The translations under genes were made by a program, and so were the position numbers. The notes under the pieces were generated by a model, which saw nothing but the letters and a program-made list of their open reading frames with translations, made no database searches and had not been told where the DNA came from. A DNA stretch of 64,000 bases from an uncultured delta proteobacterium (lineage in GTDB: Bacteria > Desulfobacterota > Zymogenia > Zymogenales > Zymogenaceae), in NCBI GenBank assembly GCA_963735595.1, contig CAVTLK010000001.1, positions 32,001-96,000 of the forward strand. Direction: 5' to 3'. Positions 4,862-43,169 of this stretch are shown piece after piece; position 1 is the first letter of the stretch; the number at the start of each line of letters is the position of its first letter.

Positions 4862-5278
4862 GTGATTGAACGGCAATATTTCCTCTTCGCCCTTGAGAAA
4901 AGGACGTTTGGTGTTCCCATTGCCGACGTCGTTAAGGTTGTTTCTATCGAGAGGATTTATCGGATACCGTTGCTGTCCGCTTTCTTCTGGGGATTTATCA
5001 TCCATGAAAAAAGGCCGGTCCCGTACATAAACCTGAAGAAGAGGATGAACATGGCCGGCCGAGCCGACAACGAAATCGGCGTTATTGTACGTGTCGGCTC
5101 CGAACCCATAGCGTTTTCAATAGACGGCAGCTACGAAGTCGTGGAGCTTGAGCGGGAACCGGAACCGATTCCGATGGAGTTTAAGGGGGTGATGAAGAAC
5201 TTTTTCAGCGCCCGAGGCACTCACAATAACCGGAATTTCATTATACTCAATGTTCGCGCACTGGCCCCCGCATCATAG
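4862..5278 (+). CDS. Divergent CheW-like protein
   Basis: FGVPIADVVKVV...RIP...GFIIHEKRPVPYINL; GTG start at 4862 preferred over 4793. Confidence 0.65.
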   Translation: MIERQYFLFALEKRTFGVPIADVVKVVSIERIYRIPLLSAFFWGFIIHEKRPVPYINLKKRMNMAGRADNEIGVIVRVGSEPIAFSIDGSYEVVELEREPEPIPMEFKGVMKNFFSARGTHNNRNFIILNVRALAPAS

Positions 5279-5302
5279 ATAACCTTTATACGGTTAAATG
5301 CC

Positions 5303-6876
5303 ATGCCAAAAAAGATCCTGCTCGCCGATGACAGCGTAACAATCCAGAAGGTCGTGAGTATCACCCTTGCCCATGAGGATTTCGATCTCACGATCGTTGA
5401 TAACGGTTCGAAGGCCGTCTCCAAGGCTAAAGAAATCAAACCCGATGTAATCCTGCTGGATGTCGTTATGCCGGACAAAGACGGCTATCAGGTCTGCCAG
5501 GAGATCAAGGGGAACGCCGATCTCAAGAATACCCCGGTTATCCTTTTGACGGGCACATTTGAGCCCTTCGACGCGGACAGGGCCGCAGAGGTCGGTGCGG
5601 ACGACTTTATCAAGAAACCGTTTGAATCTCACACCCTGATCAACAAGGTAAAGGAAATGGCGTCGCGTTCCGGGGTATCCCGCGGAAAACCGGTCGATAT
5701 CAGCGGGGTTGACATTGATTTCGAGACTCCGATCGAGGCCGAATACGAAACAACGCCGGCAGCAAAAGAGACGCCCCGTGATGAAGGGGTGGCAACCGGG
5801 GACCTTGAGAGTGCCTGGGAGACGGAGACGGAAACGGAAAAGCCATCCGTAAAGCAACAGGAAGGCGATGATATCTGGTCGGTCGAGGAGTTTGAGGATA
5901 TCGGCGGGACCGGGGGGGAAACAAAACCTCGGGAACGGGCAGCGCGGCCCGCGATTGCTTCGGAGACGGAAAGCCCGTCGCCGAGACCGTCGGAGCGAGA
6001 GCCAGTAAAGGAGGGACTTTCTCGAGAGGCGGCCGCCTCCGATGAGTTCTTCGTTAGAGAGGGTAAACCGCGCGATGTCAATGTCGAGGATTTCGAGCTG
6101 GGCGAAGAAATCAGCGAGGATGAGCTCGAAAAATTCCTCGAAGAAGAGACAACCGATGTGGAGATAGGCGCCGGGGAAGAGCCGGAGATTGGCAGCCCCG
6201 ATGTTTCCGGTGCGGACGAAGAGATATTTATGTCCGGGGAGGGCGGACGTACGGCACGGCCCGGCCGACAGGCGTCCCGGCCGGCAGATGAGGAACTGTT
6301 TGTCGAGGATTTTGAGGGATCACCTCTCGACAGGGATGTTCGTAAGCAGACCGGTGACTTTCTTGTGGAGGACTCGGACGAAGAAGAGCCGATAGAGCTT
6401 GAATGGGAGGACGAGCCGCCTCCGAAAGCGCAGAAGGCCGCGGCCCCTGAAAAAGCCGCCGACGAGTTCGAAACGCTGATCCGCAGGACGGCGGAAGAAG
6501 AAATGGCGGATTTTCCTCGTGAGCAAGGCAGCGACTCCCGGTGCCGCACGCCGGCCTGCAACGAGGGAATTCGAGGTCGATTTAAGCTCGTTTGAAGAAG
6601 AACCCCGGCGGGGTGAGACAGGAAAGAGTCGGTCGGATTTGGGGACGTTCGACTTCGAGGAACTTTCGGAAGGAGACCCCAGTCGAAGGGGAAGGCCCCG
6701 GAGTGGAAACGGCCGCGGGAGAGTTCGCTGAACGGGCCGATAAAAAAGACATGTCCAAGGCCGTTGATAGGATTGCGCGGGAGCTCATCGAAAAGGTGGT
6801 CTGGGAAGTGGTGCCGGAATTGGCCGAGGAGCTTATTAAACAGGAAATAAAGCGTCTCAAAGGCGAGAAGTCATAG
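5303..6876 (+). CDS. romR: RomR-like response regulator (REC domain, long acidic linker, conserved C-terminal helix); indels at about 6520-6700
   Basis: ILLADDSVTIQKVV...LLDVVMP...KPF receiver domain; E/D-rich linker; C-terminal ARELIEKVVWEVVPELAEELIKQEI lies in a second frame; valS is adjacent. Confidence 0.75.
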
Positions 6877-33243: not shown

Positions 33244-34546
33244 ATGATACGAAAACTTTCGCACGTCCTGGCATTATTCCTGGTGCTGGCCGCTGTTGCG
33301 TCCTGCGGGCGGTCGGTCTCGCCGGGGGCCCTCAAGCACGCGGCCGAGGGCCAGCGGCTTTTCGAGCTCATGCAGTACGAGGACGCCGTCAAGGAATACA
33401 ACGAGGCCATCAAGATCCAGCCCTCCTTCGCAGCCGCGTACCTGGGAATCGGGAGATGCCTGGCGGAGACCGGGAGATTCGACGAGGCGCTTAAGCAGTA
33501 TAAGACGGCGATGGATCTGGACCCCAAGAACGAGACCATCATGTACGAGATCGCCCGGGCCTACATCGAGAAGGATCTCGATGAAGAAGGGCTGTTGATG
33601 CTGGATAGGGCAAAGGGGCGCGACGCCGACAACCCGAAGTATTTTCTCTACCGCGGAATATATTACTACAAGAATTTACAGTTCGCGCCGGCCATAGACG
33701 AATTCCTGAAGGCGGCCGATGAAGATTCAAAATCCCCCGAACCGTATATCCAGTTGAGTCTCCTGTATAGTAACGCCAGCAACCCCTCATATAGAGACGG
33801 TGAAAAGGCCGTCGGGTATGCGGAAAAGGCCGTCGACCTTGCCCCGGATTCGCTCAAGGCCCTCGATACGCTGGCGAACGCGTATTTCTCCGCGGGGAAA
33901 TACGACGCCGCCGAGGAGACGATCAGGCGTGCGATGGAGAAATCCCCGGGCAATTCCGTGCTCACGGAAAGCCTCATGCGTTTCCAGAACACCGTCAAGG
34001 GGTCGGCCGACGAACATAACCTCAAGGGGGCGGAGCTTCTGGAAGCGGGCGACTACGGCGCCGCGGCCGAGGAATTCAAAATGGCCGTCGAGATTGATCC
34101 CAACGTTCGCGGACGGCTACTACAACCTCGGCAAGGTCTATTCGCAGATTAAAGATTATGAGCAGGCGCTGGCCTCATACAAGAAGGCGATCGAGCTGGA
34201 CCCAGAAAACGCGCGGTACCACTATAACCTCGCGATAGTTTACGGGCTAAAGGGGTTGACTAAAGAGAGCGAGCAGGAATACCTTTTGGCGATATCGCTC
34301 GATCCATACTACGACAAGGCCCATAACAACCTCGGCGCGCTGTACGTTAAAATGGATAAGCTGAACGAAGCCTTGATTGAGTTCGATAAGGCCTTTGAGA
34401 TTAATCCGAGAAGCGATTATAAGAATAATAGCGACATGGTACGGGCCATGATGGAAGAGCGGGGCCTCGCCCCGAAGAATACGCCGCCCAGACAAGGGGA
34501 AGAGCCAGTATTAAGCATCGTCGTAATCGAGGTTGTCCATGAATGA
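33244..34546 (+). CDS. TPR-repeat lipoprotein (indel near 34105)
   Basis: AAVASC lipobox-like signal; repeated A..Y.NLG...A..LDP TPR units. Confidence 0.85.
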
Positions 34547-35523
34547 TTTAGAAGGTAAGGTTCCACAGATCGAGGGTAACTTCACCGCGCTCTCTCTGGT
34601 AAGCCTGATACAGGGTATCTCGGCAAACAAGCGGATGCTGATCACGCTGTTCTCCATCGACGGAAGCGAGGGCAGGCTCTATTTCGAGAATTCCCGCATC
34701 GTGGGCGCCTTTGTTGGGGAAGATTTAACCGGTAAGAAGGCGTTCTTCAGGATGATCGAATGGGAAGACGCCCGTTTCCAGGCGTATGATATTACCGATA
34801 TAGACCAGTCCAGGTTCAATATCGATCTGGAGGTCTCTCACCTGCTGCTGGAAGGTCTCCGGCAGAAGGACGAAAAGGCAAAGATTAAGAAACGGATCCT
34901 GCCGATCTACAAGATAACGAAGGCCGAGGGGAGCTTCGAGTTAGGCGACAAAGAGCAGGAGCTGTTTTCGATCATCCCCGCCAGACGGCATCTTCGTCAA
35001 TACGCTGGTGAACATGACCTCGATGACCGACTGGGAGGCATATACGAACCTGTCGTCGCTGATGATCAAGCGGGCGATCATCTTTGTCAAGATCAAGACG
35101 CTGGTTATCGACGACAGCGAGTTCATGACCAAGATCGTGCGGGATATCCTCGAGAACCTCTATAAGGACGTCCTGGTCATCAAGACGTTGAAGACGGGAG
35201 GCGAAGCTATCAAGCTGATCGCTTCTCCCGAGTCAAAGGTCCGCCCCGACCTGATCTTTACCGACATCGTAATGGAGGGGACCAGCGGGATGGAGGTCAT
35301 CAAGGCGGCGAGGGCCCAGAGCCCCCCGATCCTGACCATCGCCGTAACCTCGCTCCAGCGGGAGATGAAAGAGATCCTCGACGCCGGCGCAAACTACCTC
35401 CACAAGAACTGGATCACGCGCGACAACATCGGCGATATCATGAGCGACCTCGTGGAGCGCACGATCTGCGGAGAAGTCGGCGTCATCGGCGGCGAGACCT
35501 ACATCAAGCCCGCGGTATCCTGA
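34539..35523 (+). CDS. DUF4388/PATAN plus C-terminal receiver domain protein (PatA-like; indel near 34980)
   Basis: IEGNF..LSLVSLIQ, GRLYFEN..IVGA and LLLEGLRQKDE; then LVIDDS...PDLIFTDIVM. Confidence 0.75.
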
Positions 35524-35558
35524 GCGTCCGCCCGGCCGGCAAACCTCACGGTAATAGA

Positions 35559-35606
35559 CCCCGGTGAAAGCCCCGGTAAAAAGCCCCGGAAAAGCCCCGG
35601 TAAAAG
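35559..35606. repeat. Four-copy tandem repeat of about 12 bp (CCCCGGTAAAAG)
   Basis: ccccggtgaaag/ccccggtaaaaag/ccccggaaaag/ccccggtaaaag. Confidence 0.85.
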
Positions 35607-36143
35607 TCATTCATACCAACACACCCAACAGACACAACCTCACGAAGACGAGGGAGCTTGCCGAGGTGGCGGTTATCTCCGCCCTCTACGTGGCGCTGAC
35701 CTACCTGGTCGCGCCGGTCGCATACGGGCCGATCCAGTTTCGCGTCAGCGAGGCGCTGGTAATCCTGGTGGCGGCGCGCCGGCACCTGCTCTGGTTCGTT
35801 CCCGTGGGCTGCGTCGTCGCCAATCTTCTCTCGCCCTACGCGGGCGTGTGGGACCTCGCGTTCATGCCGGCCATGAGCACCGTGGGGGCGCTCCCCCTCT
35901 TTTTCATGGGGCGGCGGTTCGTGCTGGCGGACGGGCTGGTTTTACGGGTCGGTGACGGGGCTCTCGGTGGCGCTGATGATCTCGGTCATCGAGGGGGGCG
36001 GGTTTGCGGTCCTTGCCGTCTCGGTCACGGCAAGCCAGCTGATCATCATGACGATCGGGTGGCTCCTGCTCTCCGGCTACCTGCTGGTGTTTAAGTCCGG
36101 AGGAAAGGGGAACGGCGGTGAGGCGCGCGGGACGGACGGATGA
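35564..36143 (+). CDS. queT: QueT-family membrane transporter (indel; start uncertain)
   Basis: AVISALYVALT..APVAYGPIQFRVSEAL and GCVVANLLSP motifs. Confidence 0.75.
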
Positions 36144-36194
36144 TGGCGGAGGGACGCCCGGCGTGTCGGTACCGGGAGGCCGGGACAGGCCGCG

Positions 36195-37104
36195 TCAGGC
36201 CGATTCGGCGATACCGCGGATGATCGAGAGTATCTCGAGGTACTTGTTCCTGGTCCCCTCGACGATATCGGGCGGCAGGGCAGGGGCCGGCGGCCGCTTG
36301 TCCCAATCGGTGGTCTCCAGCCAGTCCCGGACGAACTGCTTGTCGTAGCTTGCGGGGGACTCTCCCAGGCGGTAGGACTCCACCGGCCAGAAGCGGGACG
36401 AATCGGGCGTCAGCGCCTCGTCGATCAGGATGACCCGTCCGTCGTAAATCCCAAACTCGAACTTGGTGTCGGCAAGGATCACCCCGCGCTCGCGGCAGGC
36501 GGTCGTGGGCGAAGCGGTAGATCGAAAGCGACAGCTCTCCGACGGTGCGGACGACCTCGCGCCCAGGAGGCCTTCGGCGTCCGTCACGGAGATGTTTTCG
36601 TCGTGGCCCACGTCTGCCTTGGTGGAGGGGGTGAAGATCGGCTCCGGCAGCTGCTCGGCAAGCCTGAGGCCCGCCGGGAGCGCTATGGCCGGAGATCATC
36701 CCGGTCTTCTGATAGTCCTTGTAGCCGGAGCCCGCCAGGTACCCGCGGACGATGCACTCGAGGTCGACGCGCTGTGCCTTCCTGACGAGCACCGATCTGC
36801 CGGAAAGCTCGGGCCTGCCCGTGAAGGGGGCGGGGAATTTGGCGGCGTCGGTCTCGATGATATGGTTTTCGACGAACGTCAGCAGCGAAAACCAGATGTT
36901 GGATATCTCGGTGAGTATCTGCCCCTTGCCGGGGATGCCGTCGGTAAAGACCACGTCGAACGCCGAGAGGCGGTCCGTGGCGACGATGATGAGGCTGTCG
37001 CCGAGGTCGAAGATCTCCCGGACCTTGCCGGAATAGTCGGGCCGCCTGCCGTCGACGGCGATTGAGGTGAGGGCGTGTGGGGTCTGTTCCACGTTTTCTT
37101 TCAT
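36195..37104 (-). CDS. purC: SAICAR synthase (indels)
   Basis: SGKVRE, TDRLSAFD, ECIVRGYL, ADTKFEFG, DEALTPDSSRFW and DKQFVRDWL motifs. Confidence 0.95.
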
Positions 37105-37290: not shown

Positions 37291-37298
37291 TTAAAGAG

Positions 37299-37496
37299 TG
37301 TCGCCTTCGGCGACGTTTATTATCGTCATTGCGAGGAGGCCGTCAGGCCGACGCGGCAATCTGCAGCAATGTCGCCCCCGGCGACGTTTATTATCGTCAT
37401 TGCGAGGGGCCGAGGCGCCGCGGCAATCCCCTGTCTGTCACGATCAACCCCTTCCCCGTCATTGCGAGGAGGCCGTCAGGCCGACGCGGCAATCTC
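37299..37496 (+). repeat. REP-like composite palindromic repeat array
   Basis: Three CGTCATTGCGAGG...GGCAATC units; two are preceded by TGTCGCC-4 nt-GGCGAC-type hairpins and GTTTATTAT. Confidence 0.85.
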
Positions 37497-37814
37497 GGAC
37501 GCGACTTAGTCTCGCGGGCCCATTGAGTATGTATGCGGTAAGCATCTCGCACAGGACTGATGAACATGGGGCAGGTTCATTCTTCCTGTAAATTATTCAT
37601 AGAATTTACTATACCTATGTCCCACTGTATTATAATCATGCATAATTGACAGGAAATTATAGTACATTATATGCCTTTTTTGCTTGACACGTCCCCCATT
37701 TTATGGCATAATTATTACTAACAAATCAAGAAACCCACAAGACCAACAATCCCACTGATAAAAATCTGTTGTCTATTTAAGAGGTGCTGTGTGAAGCTCA
37801 ATGTAAATTGGACT

Positions 37815-38495
37815 ATGTTTGAGGACCGTGCGCAAAAGATGAGAATGAAACAGAGGCACAAGTGCCCGAAGCTCGTGACCTGGTCGCTGGTCTGCCTGAC
37901 GGTCGTCGCGATCACCGGCGCGGCGCTGGTATCCCGCGTGGTGGTCGGGCCGGAATCGGTCGACCGCCTGGTGCGGACGGCCTGGCTTTCGGACGAGACG
38001 GCAGCCTGTCGGAAAGGATCAATTCTTCGATCTACGACTATATCCACTCGTTCAATACGGGGCTTTCGGACTCCGAGGAGCGCGAGCTTGCAACGCTGAT
38101 CTATTTCGAATCGATGAAATACGGATACGACCCGGAGTTTATCCTGGCCATTATCCAGACCGAGAGCGCGTTCAACCCGGAGGCCGTCTCCAACGTGGGG
38201 GCGTACGGGCTGATGCAGCTGATGCCTTCCACCGCACGCGAGATCGCCCACGAGGTGAAGATCCCCTTCGAGGGCAAAAGCACGCTGAGCCAGCCGGACC
38301 TGAACGTCCGCATGGGGACGTATTATCTGTTTAAGATGATGCTCCAGTTCAAGGACGTGCGGCTGGCGCTGGTGGCCTATAACTGCGGGCCGGGGTTCGT
38401 GGAGGAGATGGTCAGAGAGGGGCAACAAGCTGCCCGAGGAGTATGTGGATAGGGTCATGGGGAATTACGAGAAGATCAAGACGATGGGGATGTAG
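37815..38495 (+). CDS. SLT-domain lytic transglycosylase (indels)
   Basis: LAIIQTESAFNP..S.VGAYGLMQL and ALVAYNCGP motifs; N-terminal TM segment; promoter TTGACA-17-CATAAT at 37684-37712. Confidence 0.88.
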
Positions 38496-38524
38496 ATTCG
38501 TCCAACGCATATAACGCGCGCACG

Positions 38525-38551
38525 AAAAACCCGCCGAAAGGCGGGTTTTTT
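38525..38551. terminator. Bidirectional-type intrinsic terminator
   Basis: AAAAACCCGCC-GAAA-GGCGGGTTTTT. Confidence 0.9.
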
Positions 38552-38594
38552 ATATTTTTCTCTAAAACGAAGTACTAAATATGTGATTTTTATT

Positions 38595-38623
38595 TTGACA
38601 GAACTTGTACAATAGTTTAAAAT
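38595..38623 (+). promoter_or_regulatory. sigma70 promoter of the AT-rich island
   Basis: TTGACA-17 nt-TAAAAT; the palindrome TTGTACAA lies in the spacer. Confidence 0.75.
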
Positions 38624-38656
38624 TAATAAAAAGTAGTTTAATTATAGGAATGAAAT

Positions 38657-38880
38657 ATGAGTGAAGATAAACTTGATATTATCATTGCGCAAGGCTAAAA
38701 ATGCTCACTAAAATTGTGGCACTTAGTATGATGAAAGATAGTCTGGGTAAGCTAGATAAGACTAAAGATAGAATAAAACTCGTGATGGATTTGGGATTTA
38801 CGGACAAAGAAGATATCGCTAATTTAGTAGGTTCAAATCCTGAGTCTGTAAGAAAAGCCATTGAAAGAATGAAAAGTTAA
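38657..38880 (+). CDS. Small HTH-like protein A (indel near 38692; not in ORF track)
   Basis: Manual translation: MSEDKLDIIIA/..KMLTKIVALSMM...DRIKLVMDLGFTDKEDIANLVGSNPESVRKAIERMKS. Confidence 0.65.
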
Positions 38881-38896
38881 CGTAGAGGTGTTCCGA

Positions 38897-39145
38897 ATGA
38901 CAAAAGAGAGTAATAAAGAACTATTAGGACAAATGCTAATACTTAATAGGTTGGTAGCGTTGTTAATATTTTCGATAGAGAAAAAGAATAGCCAAGTGGA
39001 GAGAATTGAATTGTTGAAAACGACAGGTTTCAGACCGGCAGAAATTGCACAGCTAATAGCGAAGCCAGTGAATTTCGTAACAGCAAATATCAGCAAGATA
39101 AAGAGTAAGGATAGTAAAGAAAAAGAAGTAGTAAAAAGTAAATAG
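38897..39145 (+). CDS. Small HTH-like protein B
   Basis: SD sequence GAGGTG; LNRLVALL...ERIELLKTTGFRPAEIAQLIA. Confidence 0.75.
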   Translation: MTKESNKELLGQMLILNRLVALLIFSIEKKNSQVERIELLKTTGFRPAEIAQLIAKPVNFVTANISKIKSKDSKEKEVVKSK

Positions 39146-39171
39146 TAGATTATTGAAGATAAACCTGGAAA

Positions 39172-39756
39172 ATGATAAATAGGAAGGTTAGAGAAGAATT
39201 GTTGAGGAAGTTCGGTTATAAAAAACCTCAACCTCTTTATAAGAAAATTAGCGATATAGTAGAAGCATTCCCATTAACGCCGGAACAGGCCGCGTATTTA
39301 TTGGCTCAATATAGGGGTATAGTGTTATCAAAATACTTAGGGAGTACCGAACTCGCTGAAATACAAACCCTCTTCGGTCGCTATGATTTGTCCCGGTACG
39401 CCCTCGGCCGTAAAAGGCCGACTAAGCAAGAAGTTGCGACTGCAGAGAAAACTAGAGTTCAATTGAGTATAACAAGAAGTCAGAAAAAGAGTAACGTTGG
39501 CGGGAAAAGGAAGAGAGCGGTAAAATACGGCTTTTCGTATAGGAATTTATTAGTTACGTCCGCATTGTTTCTTATAGTTCTTTTGTGCACCCTTTTCTTC
39601 ATAAAACGGTACGGAGAAGGTGAGAATTATCTTCAAAAAATAGCTAATACCTCAGATATTCTACTCTTCGAGTTCATAGCGTATTCATTTATTGCGTCAG
39701 CATCCGGACTTTTCGACAGGATAAGGGGTTATCTAAAGGACAAGTTGAGTATATAA
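39172..39756 (+). CDS. Protein with shared N-terminal helical domain and two C-terminal TM helices
   Basis: PLTPEQAAYLLAQYRGIVLSKYL; K/R-rich linker; hydrophobic LLVTSALFLIVLLCTLFFI and ILLFEFIAYSFIASASGLF segments. Confidence 0.75.
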   Translation: MINRKVREELLRKFGYKKPQPLYKKISDIVEAFPLTPEQAAYLLAQYRGIVLSKYLGSTELAEIQTLFGRYDLSRYALGRKRPTKQEVATAEKTRVQLSITRSQKKSNVGGKRKRAVKYGFSYRNLLVTSALFLIVLLCTLFFIKRYGEGENYLQKIANTSDILLFEFIAYSFIASASGLFDRIRGYLKDKLSI

Positions 39757-39767
39757 CTAGCTACTAA

Positions 39768-39878
39768 ACATTCTATATATTAAAACACGTAGGTTTCCAG
39801 AATGAAGAGATAGCCTCGTTGTTTGGGGCTAACGAAGAAACCGTAAGGTCAATACTAAGCCGGTACAAAAGAAGATAA
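39768..39878 (+). pseudogene. 5'-truncated remnant of small HTH-like gene C
   Basis: Startless frame FYILKHVGFQNEEIASLFGANEETVRSILSRYKRR* matches the paralog motif. Confidence 0.6.
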
Positions 39879-39890
39879 AGGAGTTGATCG

Positions 39891-40121
39891 ATGGACAATG
39901 ATAGCGGTAAGGAGCTTAGAAACGACAACTACAGCGAGCTTGTCGATGAGGTAAGAAAGATAAAAAGCCTTTTAGCATTTGTACTTGCTAGTCAAGGTAC
40001 TGAATTGACCGAAGATAAGAGAATGAGAATCTTAGAATATGGCGGCTTTAGCCAATCACAGATTGCAGAACTAATCGGAGTAAATCAGAGCACCGTGAGC
40101 AGACATCTAAAAAAAGGATAA
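39891..40121 (+). CDS. Small HTH protein D
   Basis: SD sequence AAGGAG; GFSQSQIAELIGVNQSTVSRHL is a classic HTH signature. Confidence 0.85.
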   Translation: MDNDSGKELRNDNYSELVDEVRKIKSLLAFVLASQGTELTEDKRMRILEYGGFSQSQIAELIGVNQSTVSRHLKKG

Positions 40122-40161
40122 ATGTTAGCAATAATGGGACAATTTAAATCGGTCTTTTGAA

Positions 40162-40971
40162 ATGAGATATACTGACCTAGTAGAAAAACTAATAAAAAAG
40201 TTAGGTAGTAGGGCAACGGTATATAGAAGAGCCGGTGAACTGGGAGAAGAGCTCTTTATACCGACGAAGGAGGCCATGTACTTGTTGGCCTTTAGCGAAA
40301 AAATCGGCCTGGAAGACTTATTGGATGGAGCCGAAAAGGATAGACTTAGGGTGATGTATTTCACTTATAAGGACAGAATTGGGGAACCTAGTACTTCGAA
40401 GGATACCGCTAAGACTCCAGAAACTCGGAAAAACAGACGCAAGTCAAAGGGGGAGGTTGTACTGAATATTGATGATTTGGGTAATATAGTGCCAAGGGTC
40501 CTATTACCAGAGCAGAAGTTTAAAGACGCCGTCGAAATGGCGAAGATGTACATTCTACTATATGTAGTAGAGAATTCTATAAGGGAAGTTATCGACCTAA
40601 GAATGCATAAGATATACGGCCCAAATTGGTGGGATTTGAAAGTACAAAAGAAGCGAAAAGACAAAGTTGACGAAAGGAAACAGGACGAGCATGCAAACCC
40701 GTGGTTTGGCCAAGAAAGAGGGGCTAGACAGATCGACTACCTTGACCTAAATGAACTTCCCGATATTATACATAATAATGAGAAGGATTTTATACCGGAC
40801 ATCTTCCCAACATATTCCTGGATAGATGAAAAGATTCATGACCTTTATAGATCAAGGTGCGTTGTCGCCCACATGAACCATCTTAAAAAGTATAATAGGG
40901 AAGACGTAAAGGGCATCCTAAGGAAGTTGGAAGCTCAAATAAAGGCAAAGAAGACTCTGATTATGCCCTAG
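40162..40971 (+). CDS. Protein with shared N-terminal domain and Swt1-like HEPN RNase domain
   Basis: YILLYVVENSIRE..., YGPNWW, YLDLNEL and RCVVAH (Rx4H). Confidence 0.8.
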   Translation: MRYTDLVEKLIKKLGSRATVYRRAGELGEELFIPTKEAMYLLAFSEKIGLEDLLDGAEKDRLRVMYFTYKDRIGEPSTSKDTAKTPETRKNRRKSKGEVVLNIDDLGNIVPRVLLPEQKFKDAVEMAKMYILLYVVENSIREVIDLRMHKIYGPNWWDLKVQKKRKDKVDERKQDEHANPWFGQERGARQIDYLDLNELPDIIHNNEKDFIPDIFPTYSWIDEKIHDLYRSRCVVAHMNHLKKYNREDVKGILRKLEAQIKAKKTLIMP

Positions 40972-40991
40972 CTGAAGAAAACCTTCTCCCC

Positions 40992-41575
40992 CTACCGCTT
41001 CCTCAGCACAAACAGGCACGATTCCTGCCCCATGGCCTTGCACGTCTCCTCCACCACCTGCATCACCCCCTTGCCGTAGGTCCAGTCCGTCATGAACTGG
41101 AGCCCCCCGCCGTATTGCGAGCAGTAGGGCTTGGCGCTTTTTGCGCCGGTGCAGGTGAGGCAGTCGAACACGTCAAAGCGGGGCAGGCCGTCCTCCCCGA
41201 TCACCACCCGGCCCTTGTTGAGCACGGCCTGCGAAAATTCGAAGCACTTGACGATCTTTTCGCCCGCGGGCAGGTCCTTGATGGAATCCAGCGCGTGGTA
41301 CGTCATCACGCCGAACTCGACGTTCTTGTAGCCCATCTGCCGGAGGATCCCCTGTGCGCCCACCGCCCCCACGAGCGCGATCGTTTCCCGGTAGATGGCC
41401 GCCTGTTCGGAGAGCGTGAACCCCTTGTCGAAGGTCGGCTCCGGCGGGGAATCGATGACGCGGAGAGGCCCGCGGCCTTGAAGATTATCTTTCGGGCGTT
41501 TTCGCCCATGACCTCCCCGAGGCTGTCGTATGCCGCGCGGATAGCCATATTGGAAACGGTCTTTTCCTCGCTCAT
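40992..41575 (-). CDS. V4R-domain protein (indel near 41465)
   Basis: DCLTC...PYC...EETCKAMGQESCLF cysteine pattern. Confidence 0.75.
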
Positions 41576-41806
41576 GGCACACCTCCATTGGATTGAGGGT
41601 ATCGAGAAACGCACTCAGGAAGAACAGGGGGGATCGACCCGCGATAGGTGCACTATCGCGTCCGGCTCGTTCGGGCGAAGTATATCCGATACTATAATTA
41701 TACTACCGTATTATAAAAATGCCATCTTTTTACGGCGCGGGCGTCGGGGCGGGCCGGTGTGAAAACCGGGAGATCGGGGTAACTGCGGCAGGAAGCGGGG
41801 GAGGGG

Positions 41807-42847: not shown

Positions 42848-42899
42848 GTTACCCGTTTATGTCGATTATGGGGAGGCGATGTATCGTACCGGACGCGCA

Positions 42900-42969
42900 C
42901 ACGGACAACGGGGTTGTCCGTGGCACCCAGCCCGTGTTTGAACCCGCAGGGGTCGCATATATGCGACCC
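42900..42969. repeat. Two REP-like palindromes
   Basis: CACGGACAAC-ggg-GTTGTCCGTG followed by GCACCC, and the perfect 20-bp palindrome GGGTCGCATATATGCGACCC. Confidence 0.65.
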
Positions 42970-43013
42970 GCGGAACGACGAAGGAGAAAAAGGGACAGTG
43001 TGAGTCGTTCCCG

Positions 43014-43169
43014 GTGACAGTCAGGGGATTGCCACGACACTATCACCCCAAAAGGCAGGCCTTTTGGGGGCCCGATTAAGCGCACAGGCCTCGCAATGAC
43101 AATAATAACCGTCGCCGAAGGCGACAATGCTAATCATAGCCGAGTCGCCTCCGGTTCCTCGCAATGACG
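43014..43169 (-). repeat. Inverted copy of the 37.3 kb composite REP-like element
   Basis: The reverse complement reads TGTCGCCTTCGGCGACGGTTATTATTGTCATTGCGAGG...GGCAATCCCCTGACTGTCAC. Confidence 0.85.

Follow-up and report, generated by a model that had tools for sequence, protein, structure and literature searches.

The stretch of DNA analysed here (hereafter the window) comprises 64,000 nucleotides of a contig from an uncultured delta proteobacterium. It contains an AT-rich island at positions 38552-40975, in which small genes for helix-turn-helix (HTH) proteins, termed H, precede larger genes with a common N-terminal domain, termed X, and which represents a real, recurrent and modular system, apparently undescribed so far and kin to toxin-antitoxin and abortive-infection (Abi) systems. 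A sequence-only reading of the window had placed abrupt switches to and from AT-rich DNA at 38551 and 40975, and the measured composition agrees: the GC content of the island is 0.378, whereas the flanks have 0.591 and 0.636 and the whole window has 0.553. Homology to relatives breaks off at 38551-38555 and restarts at 40992-40994, and from these breakpoints the variable insert spans about 38556-40991. The terminator and the promoter described by that reading were also found. A hairpin resembling an intrinsic terminator (38524-38551, +) follows the upstream SLT gene and marks the left edge of the variable slot, and a sigma70-type promoter, TTGACA-17-TAAAAT, with 11 of 12 consensus matches lies at 38595-38623 (+), in a region where the nine promoter-like sites are not above the number in shuffled sequences (6.4 +/- 2.4). 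As claimed, the genes follow in the order H-A, H-B, X-2TM, H-C remnant, H-D and X-HEPN, all on the + strand and separated by gaps of 11-40 nt. Only short, chance-level repeats were seen when att sites and flanking repeats were sought at the island, and no RNA family was matched there in an Rfam scan.

The first gene, H-A (38657-38880, +), codes for an amphipathic helix and an HTH and is frameshifted near 38693-38700: the ATG at 38657, which is preceded by a ribosome-binding site (RBS), meets a stop at 38696, and the HTH frame begins at 38701. It matches the H profile, which includes H-A itself, at E 4.8e-13, and its frameshift may be real or an assembly error. H-B (38897-39145, +) is intact (82 aa) and consists of the helix, a sigma-region-4-like HTH and a basic tail; in the H tree, it groups with a seven-member subtype (support 91/83, not starred). 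X-2TM (39172-39756, +; 194 aa) is composed of X (39172-39378), a basic linker with a net charge of +12, membrane segments and a tail. It had been read as an effector with two transmembrane segments, which holds for the first, strong segment (Kyte-Doolittle 2.87), whereas the second is marginal (1.78). H-C (39768-39878, +) is a 36-codon HTH half (Sigma70_r4_2, E 2.9e-4) without start or RBS; no 5' half was recognisable by eye in any frame, and it is more likely a true remnant. H-D (39891-40121, +; 76 aa) is intact, with helix and HTH (HTH_5, E 2.3e-6). The four H frames of the island align with one another, and the Pfam HTH matches of H-C and H-D are weak. In X-HEPN (40162-40971, +; 269 aa), X (40162-40365) is connected by a disordered linker to a Swt1-like HEPN domain, in which the R-x4-H motif is intact (R232 and H237; 40855-40872) and both residues are invariant in 40 homologues. 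The match to Pfam HEPN_Swt1 (E 2.1e-4) is below the family cut-off, which homologues do pass. When the protein was modelled with AlphaFold2 (pLDDT 83), the closest fold was PbAbiF (8vz6; Z 9.6, root-mean-square deviation (rmsd) 3.7, 138 aligned), and residues 119-262 align to PbAbiF and further HEPN structures over the HEPN helical fold. X-HEPN is thus a predicted HEPN RNase-like toxin, as the sequence-only reading had supposed.

Neither X nor H nor the 2TM tail received a full assignment from Pfam, NCBIfam or PADLOC, and the ESM Atlas gave no usable match for X or the 2TM tail. That X-2TM and X-HEPN hold the same strongly diverged domain had been proposed earlier, and the relationship is weak in pairwise comparison (24% over 85 aa, E 0.004) and clear by profile. 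When a profile of 39 outside X-HEPN homologues was run against the genome as 77,900 six-frame segments, X-2TM came first (E 6.6e-12) and X-HEPN second (E 3e-7), with the next segment at 0.15, and the same top two were obtained with a profile of 14 outside X domains having non-Swt1 tails (4.5e-15 and 7.4e-8). Local duplication of one module was considered and rejected, as each X is nearer to X domains elsewhere than to the other copy (the two rank each other 46th and 30th of 49), and the two modules were therefore likely acquired separately and then stacked. A relationship of X to H was not supported (profile-profile probability 19%).

X spans about 68 residues. When 1.84 billion representatives were searched with a 10-sequence profile of it, 207 distant protein clusters matched at E up to 0.001. 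The best 150 of these 207 comprise 76 clusters with Swt1-HEPN, 51 short ones (under 60 residues beyond X, mostly fragments) and 23 with other tails. Scanning of 15 of the 23 gave Ymh-HEPN in eight, CAP12-type TIR in two, TIR_2 in one, AAA in one and no useful family in three, including one with a single membrane segment; the unscanned eight consist of the X-2TM of the window, six tails that are short or truncated and one false positive from a repeat. Of 54 complete Swt1 domains, 53 retain the R-x4-H motif. These fusions to Swt1-HEPN, Ymh-HEPN, TIR, AAA and membrane segments bear out the earlier idea of interchangeable effectors behind a shared domain. The module is patchily distributed: none of 40 relatives searched has X, and a Chloroflexota-centred sample yielded it in 1 of 400 other genomes. 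X had no match in IMG/VR viral contigs, GenBank phages or plasmids; one plasmid matched the HEPN part of X-HEPN only, and H-B matched none. In three predicted proteins (P0191, P0220 and P0260), X stands in one chain with H sequence or with that of a winged type (W, see below); these may be real fusions or frameshifted gene calls.

The order of H genes ahead of an X gene recurs at other loci. Among the GTDB loci found with an X-HEPN alignment, X was present in 10 of 12 and H genes lay upstream in all 10; at L006 and L010, another effector-like gene stands between H and X, and at L006 also an insertion sequence. Metagenome loci were collected with a degenerate motif covering 38 of 149 X representatives (at least 120 loci, 80 with flanks), which biases this sample to one X subgroup and to Swt1 effectors, and H genes were sought with a profile built from the window and loci L001-L011 only. 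Loci L020-L100 contain 52 X domains, 41 of them with at least 600 bp upstream, and an H gene precedes X in 38 of the 41 (at least two H genes in 27) and in 17 of 18 after redundancy removal, compared with 0 of 30 control loci that matched the motif and lacked X. X and HTH genes therefore do occur together, a point on which the sequence-only reading had staked its proposal. Three loci depart from this: L088, where two W genes take the place of H, L086, whose X is truncated, and L097. The same sample also holds the arrangements W-W-H-X-TIR (L095) and W-W-X-Ymh (L088).

Matches to the H profile were found in 8 of 401 genomes of an Acidobacteriota-centred sample and in 3 of 401 from the phylum of the window, centres included. 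Six new multi-gene H clusters were fetched, and a larger co-oriented gene lies behind the cluster in all six, with stacked modules in three. For example, L187 carries three H genes, X-HEPN, two H genes and a solo HEPN; L188 carries two H and two W genes, a winged-helix-HEPN protein, three H genes and a solo HEPN; and L189 carries two H genes and one W, a winged-helix-Schlafen protein, another W and X with a further domain, which by eye we take to be HEPN-like. At L190, the order H, short h, H is followed by a winged helix with a further domain lacking a library match; at L191, four H genes and one W precede a 256-aa protein (6054-6821) of no known family; and at L192, two H and two h genes precede a winged helix and TIR in two frames. 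Stacked modules are also present at L033, L046 and L088, and in six of six other genomes the GC content of the modules is lower than that of their flanks by 3-11 points.

Several further arrangements were noted in these searches. Winged-helix-Schlafen/AlbA_2 fusions lie behind H clusters at L189 (4613-5407, -) and L046 (3589-4383, +). A winged helix with a conserved domain that has no Pfam or PADLOC match, presumably nuclease-like as judged by eye, recurs behind H clusters at L190 (5258-6187), L088 (485-1450, -), L006 (1445-2434) and L010 (4549-5584). At L003, a winged-helix-HEPN gene (4874-5644, -) is divergent from an H gene and X-HEPN. Genomes G604, G493 and G668 each gave a single weak H match inside a longer frame.

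The H proteins are predicted to combine an amphipathic helix of heptad-like hydrophobic spacing with a sigma-region-4-like HTH and a basic tail, and the recognition helix and the basic tail are conserved. Their clusters consist of one to five small genes, which belong to three related types (H, short h and winged W). A fixed HTH pair is accordingly rejected, and with it the earlier picture of a fixed three-component system, since some effectors also lack X. Paralogues at the same locus were nearest neighbours in 0 of 53 cases, and mean identity is 0.26 within and 0.29 between loci. The H tree has poor overall resolution (14 of its 65 branches are starred), and it contains several supported subtypes spread over loci. 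Because same-locus paralogues are never nearest and the subtypes are spread in this way, the H proteins are better regarded as non-redundant subunits than as local duplicates. In the 45 regions upstream of H clusters, TTGACA occurs in 15, against 1.8 expected, and is the sole enriched element.

The slot behind the SLT terminator differs in every relative examined, and no integrase or flanking repeat was seen. It holds a Drt4/Drt6-type reverse transcriptase in G001 (L154), PD-Lambda-5 A and B in G005 (L155) and GajA and GajB fragments of a decayed Gabija in G003 (L153); it is empty in G007 (L156) and split by a contig break in G002 (L157/L158). The slot is thus a small defence hotspot, and because it carries known anti-phage systems in relatives, the modules of the island are likely an undescribed anti-phage suicide system.

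We interpret the island by an abortive-infection guard model, in which a mixed HTH complex restrains the predicted toxin until phage infection. Distinct small HTH proteins, strongly and constantly expressed, would assemble into one complex that would hold the effector (a HEPN RNase-like or a membrane protein) inactive, probably through the N-terminal X. Disturbance of this complex by phage infection would release the toxin; the trigger may be that labile HTH subunits disappear at host shut-off or that a phage protein binds. Hetero-oligomers, H-X binding, toxicity, the trigger and protection are all steps that we infer. The antitoxin-first gene order, the dedicated H set of each effector, the intact catalytic motifs and the hotspot argue for the guard model, which we hold tentatively, at somewhat less than even confidence; a defence role of the family is considered quite probable.

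A number of observations weigh against the guard model. First, at L097 the 1100 bp upstream of an X-HEPN that looks intact and keeps R-x4-H contain no H gene, and such an orphan is not expected under strict antitoxin dependence. Second, H clusters also precede winged-helix effectors (HEPN, Schlafen and TIR) and solo HEPNs, and because the same clusters precede effectors without X, X is optional and one of at least two adaptor types. The solo Swt1 HEPNs at L187 (6225-6728, -) and L188 (6469-6978, -) have an intact R-x4-H and their own H genes and lie downstream of the fused HEPN. Third, in the island itself, H-A is frameshifted and H-C truncated while X-HEPN looks intact, and the tail of X-2TM found only itself among 23 candidate homologues, so it is the position of this gene that suggests an effector role. 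Fourth, no shared operator or gapped motif beyond the -35 box was found in the 45 cluster-upstream regions. Finally, defence neighbours within about 2.5 kb occur at 6 of 21 X loci and at 2 of 14 controls (Fisher p 0.43), both control matches being near-duplicate loci with partial DrmC matches. Of the earlier prediction of recurrent HTH-HTH-X operons near defence genes, the recurrence (38/41) and the hotspot slot are supported, the fixed pair needs correcting, and the enrichment of neighbours is not significant.

The orphan at L097, the H clusters followed by solo HEPNs and the damage to H-A and H-C in the island weaken the guard model and favour an activator model, in which the mixed HTH complex would sense DNA or serve as a scaffold, bringing X- or winged-helix effectors together on invading DNA; oligomerization would switch the effectors on, and the effector alone would be silent. 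Such a mechanism would tolerate an intact orphan as well as damaged H-A and H-C, and it is in keeping with the conserved recognition helix and basic tail of H and with the basic character of X (mean net charge +4.7) and the linker (+12). HEPN and TIR enzymes as a rule depend on dimer or oligomer formation, which also counts for it. However, a DNA motif shared upstream of the clusters was not found, and the gene order fits antitoxin-first operons equally well, and we regard the activator model as rather unlikely.

The damaged genes could instead mean that the copy in the window is decaying, so that only X-HEPN with H-D, or nothing, functions and X-2TM is a dead chimera, with the family unaffected. 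The truncated H-C, the frameshifted H-A and the orphan 2TM tail are consistent with this, as is the decayed Gabija in the slot of G003. However, the X-2TM frame is open for 194 codons in DNA of 38% GC, and the break in H-A may be an assembly error because the conserved flanking genes carry indels: the SLT gene beside the island is frameshifted here but has an unbroken frame in G001, G003 and G005, and relative to G003 the window has five single-base gaps in 664 nt of conserved flanking genes. A search of sequencing runs listed no near-identical run with which to check the H-A break and no RNA run containing the island. Decay of this copy is judged unlikely.

The defence-neighbour counts bear on another alternative, namely that the modules are selfish multi-antitoxin addiction or stress toxin-antitoxin modules with no anti-phage role. 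The toxin-antitoxin-like order, the lack of significant enrichment and the pairs beside L001 and L002, which by eye we take to be HicAB-like, point in this direction. Three named defence systems in the slot of relatives, effectors that include TIR and Schlafen, and the lack of X matches in plasmids, phages and viral contigs point away from it, and we consider it improbable.

The fold of X was compared with known structures. AlphaFold2 predicts four helices (pLDDT 92), followed in X-HEPN by the disordered linker and the HEPN domain. In a search of 48,161 solved chains, the closest structure was AROD of archaeal Rpa1 (8aa9_B; Z 7.5, rmsd 2.0, 54 aligned, 32% identity), with a Z score below the caution level of the tool (8) and 2.6 above the next unrelated chain (Z 4.9). 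The second X copy gave Z 6.3 (rmsd 2.5, 54 aligned), Foldseek gave a probability of 0.96 for X and AROD (TM 0.62, E 0.57), and an X profile against PDB sequences had AROD as its top match (E 0.027). DUF2240 (PF09999), which the accessible text of Madru et al. 2023 (PMC10122647; PDB 8aa9, 8aaj) equates with AROD and calls archaea-specific, matched one X in Pfam at E 0.004 (17.2 bits, cut-off 22.3) and none of the window proteins. Each of these lines is modest alone and all lead to the same target, and X is a likely homologue of AROD/DUF2240.

Like X, the AROD of archaeal Rpa1 is a three-helix bundle at the N-terminus of its protein. In contrast, as far as the accessible text describes AROD, X has a fourth helix, is basic and bacterial, and carries HEPN, TIR or membrane segments behind it where AROD has OB folds; no OB fold fused to X was identified among the best 150 of the 207 clusters. 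In that text, AROD is acidic (10 Glu in 56 residues) and binds OB domains next to their DNA cleft, not DNA (PMC10122647). The net charge of X averages +4.7 (+1 to +8) in the metagenome set and is +4 and 0 in the window copies, and an acidic surface like that of AROD was not seen. Because X is basic and AROD acidic, we call X a likely homologue and not a member with the same function.

The likeness to AROD allows a further reading, in which X itself would be the sensor and, like AROD, would bind an OB-fold single-stranded-DNA-binding protein (SSB) of the phage, the HTH genes only setting or repressing expression. X resembles AROD by fold and weakly by sequence, AROD binds OB domains in the accessible text (PMC10122647), and N-terminal sensor domains with swapped effectors have been proposed for AbiJ-NTDs (PMC3710099, as far as section 12 covers them). 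Against this stand the reversed charge of X and the difficulty that control of transcription alone hardly explains several non-redundant regulators per effector, and we give this reading little credence compared with the guard model.

Comparison with known systems supports the earlier view that the system is unnamed. PADLOC matched no system in full in the island or related modules. Component B of the PADLOC candidate PDC-M34 corresponds to the HEPN of the island (E 4e-33), but only over residues 109-254, leaving X uncovered, and PDC-M34A had no match in the 6 island proteins or in 16 related-module proteins. AbiF-type HEPN Abi proteins (PDB 8vz6) have the nearest HEPN fold, but neither an MNT antitoxin nor an Rfam RNA was found here. 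Type II toxin-antitoxin operons usually place a small HTH gene before the toxin gene, and the island likewise has small HTH genes directly upstream of toxin-like genes in one operon; it differs in having one to five divergent small genes per effector, not one antitoxin. The AbiJ-NTD domains are fused to HEPN, TIR and REase effectors, with a sensor or antitoxin role proposed (Anantharaman et al. 2013, PMC3710099, accessible text), and AbiJ-NTD1-5/AbiTii likewise place one N-terminal domain over swappable toxins, including Ymh, DUF4145 and TIR. However, those domains have 100-180 aa, compared with about 68 all-helical residues in X, and the accessible text describes no HTH gene cluster with their fusions (PMC3710099). 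For 10 X domains searched in Pfam at E up to 1, no AbiJ-NTD or AbiTii family was listed. The gene set was not described in the full-text literature searched, which included few subscription papers and no supplements (some of these neighbourhoods might be listed in the additional file to the HEPN paper or in the PDC tables), nor in the accessible text of 10.64898/2026.10.19.760177 or 10.1101/2024.01.29.577857.

The candidate immune architecture is rare yet cross-phylum (Chloroflexota, Acidobacteriota, Planctomycetota and the phylum of the window), and at least seven effector types stand behind one unexplained regulatory unit. There is a fair chance that the H-cluster system uses a new sensing principle, and the compact cassette of 1.5-2.5 kb makes this principle testable. 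A broader proposal, that two to five sigma-region-4-like HTH subunits form in combination an exchangeable guard or decoy platform gating plug-in effectors (HEPN, TIR, Schlafen, nuclease or membrane protein) through two alternative adaptors, one of them a bacterial AROD counterpart that may read phage SSBs, would define a new immune class, and it is possible though doubtful. That bacterial conflict proteins contain a likely homologue of a domain published as specific to archaea would link a replication adaptor fold to immunity, and it gives a concrete hypothesis for X, namely binding of an OB fold or SSB.

Outside the island, frameshift-split housekeeping genes for a TPR protein and for PurC-like, SLT and V4R proteins lie at 33244-36611, 37862-38496 and 40992-41614, and their splitting is consistent with assembly indel errors. 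In addition, a palindromic element, REP- or MITE-like, is present at 37298-37500 and at about 42850-43160 of the window, with dozens of copies in genomes of the same genus.

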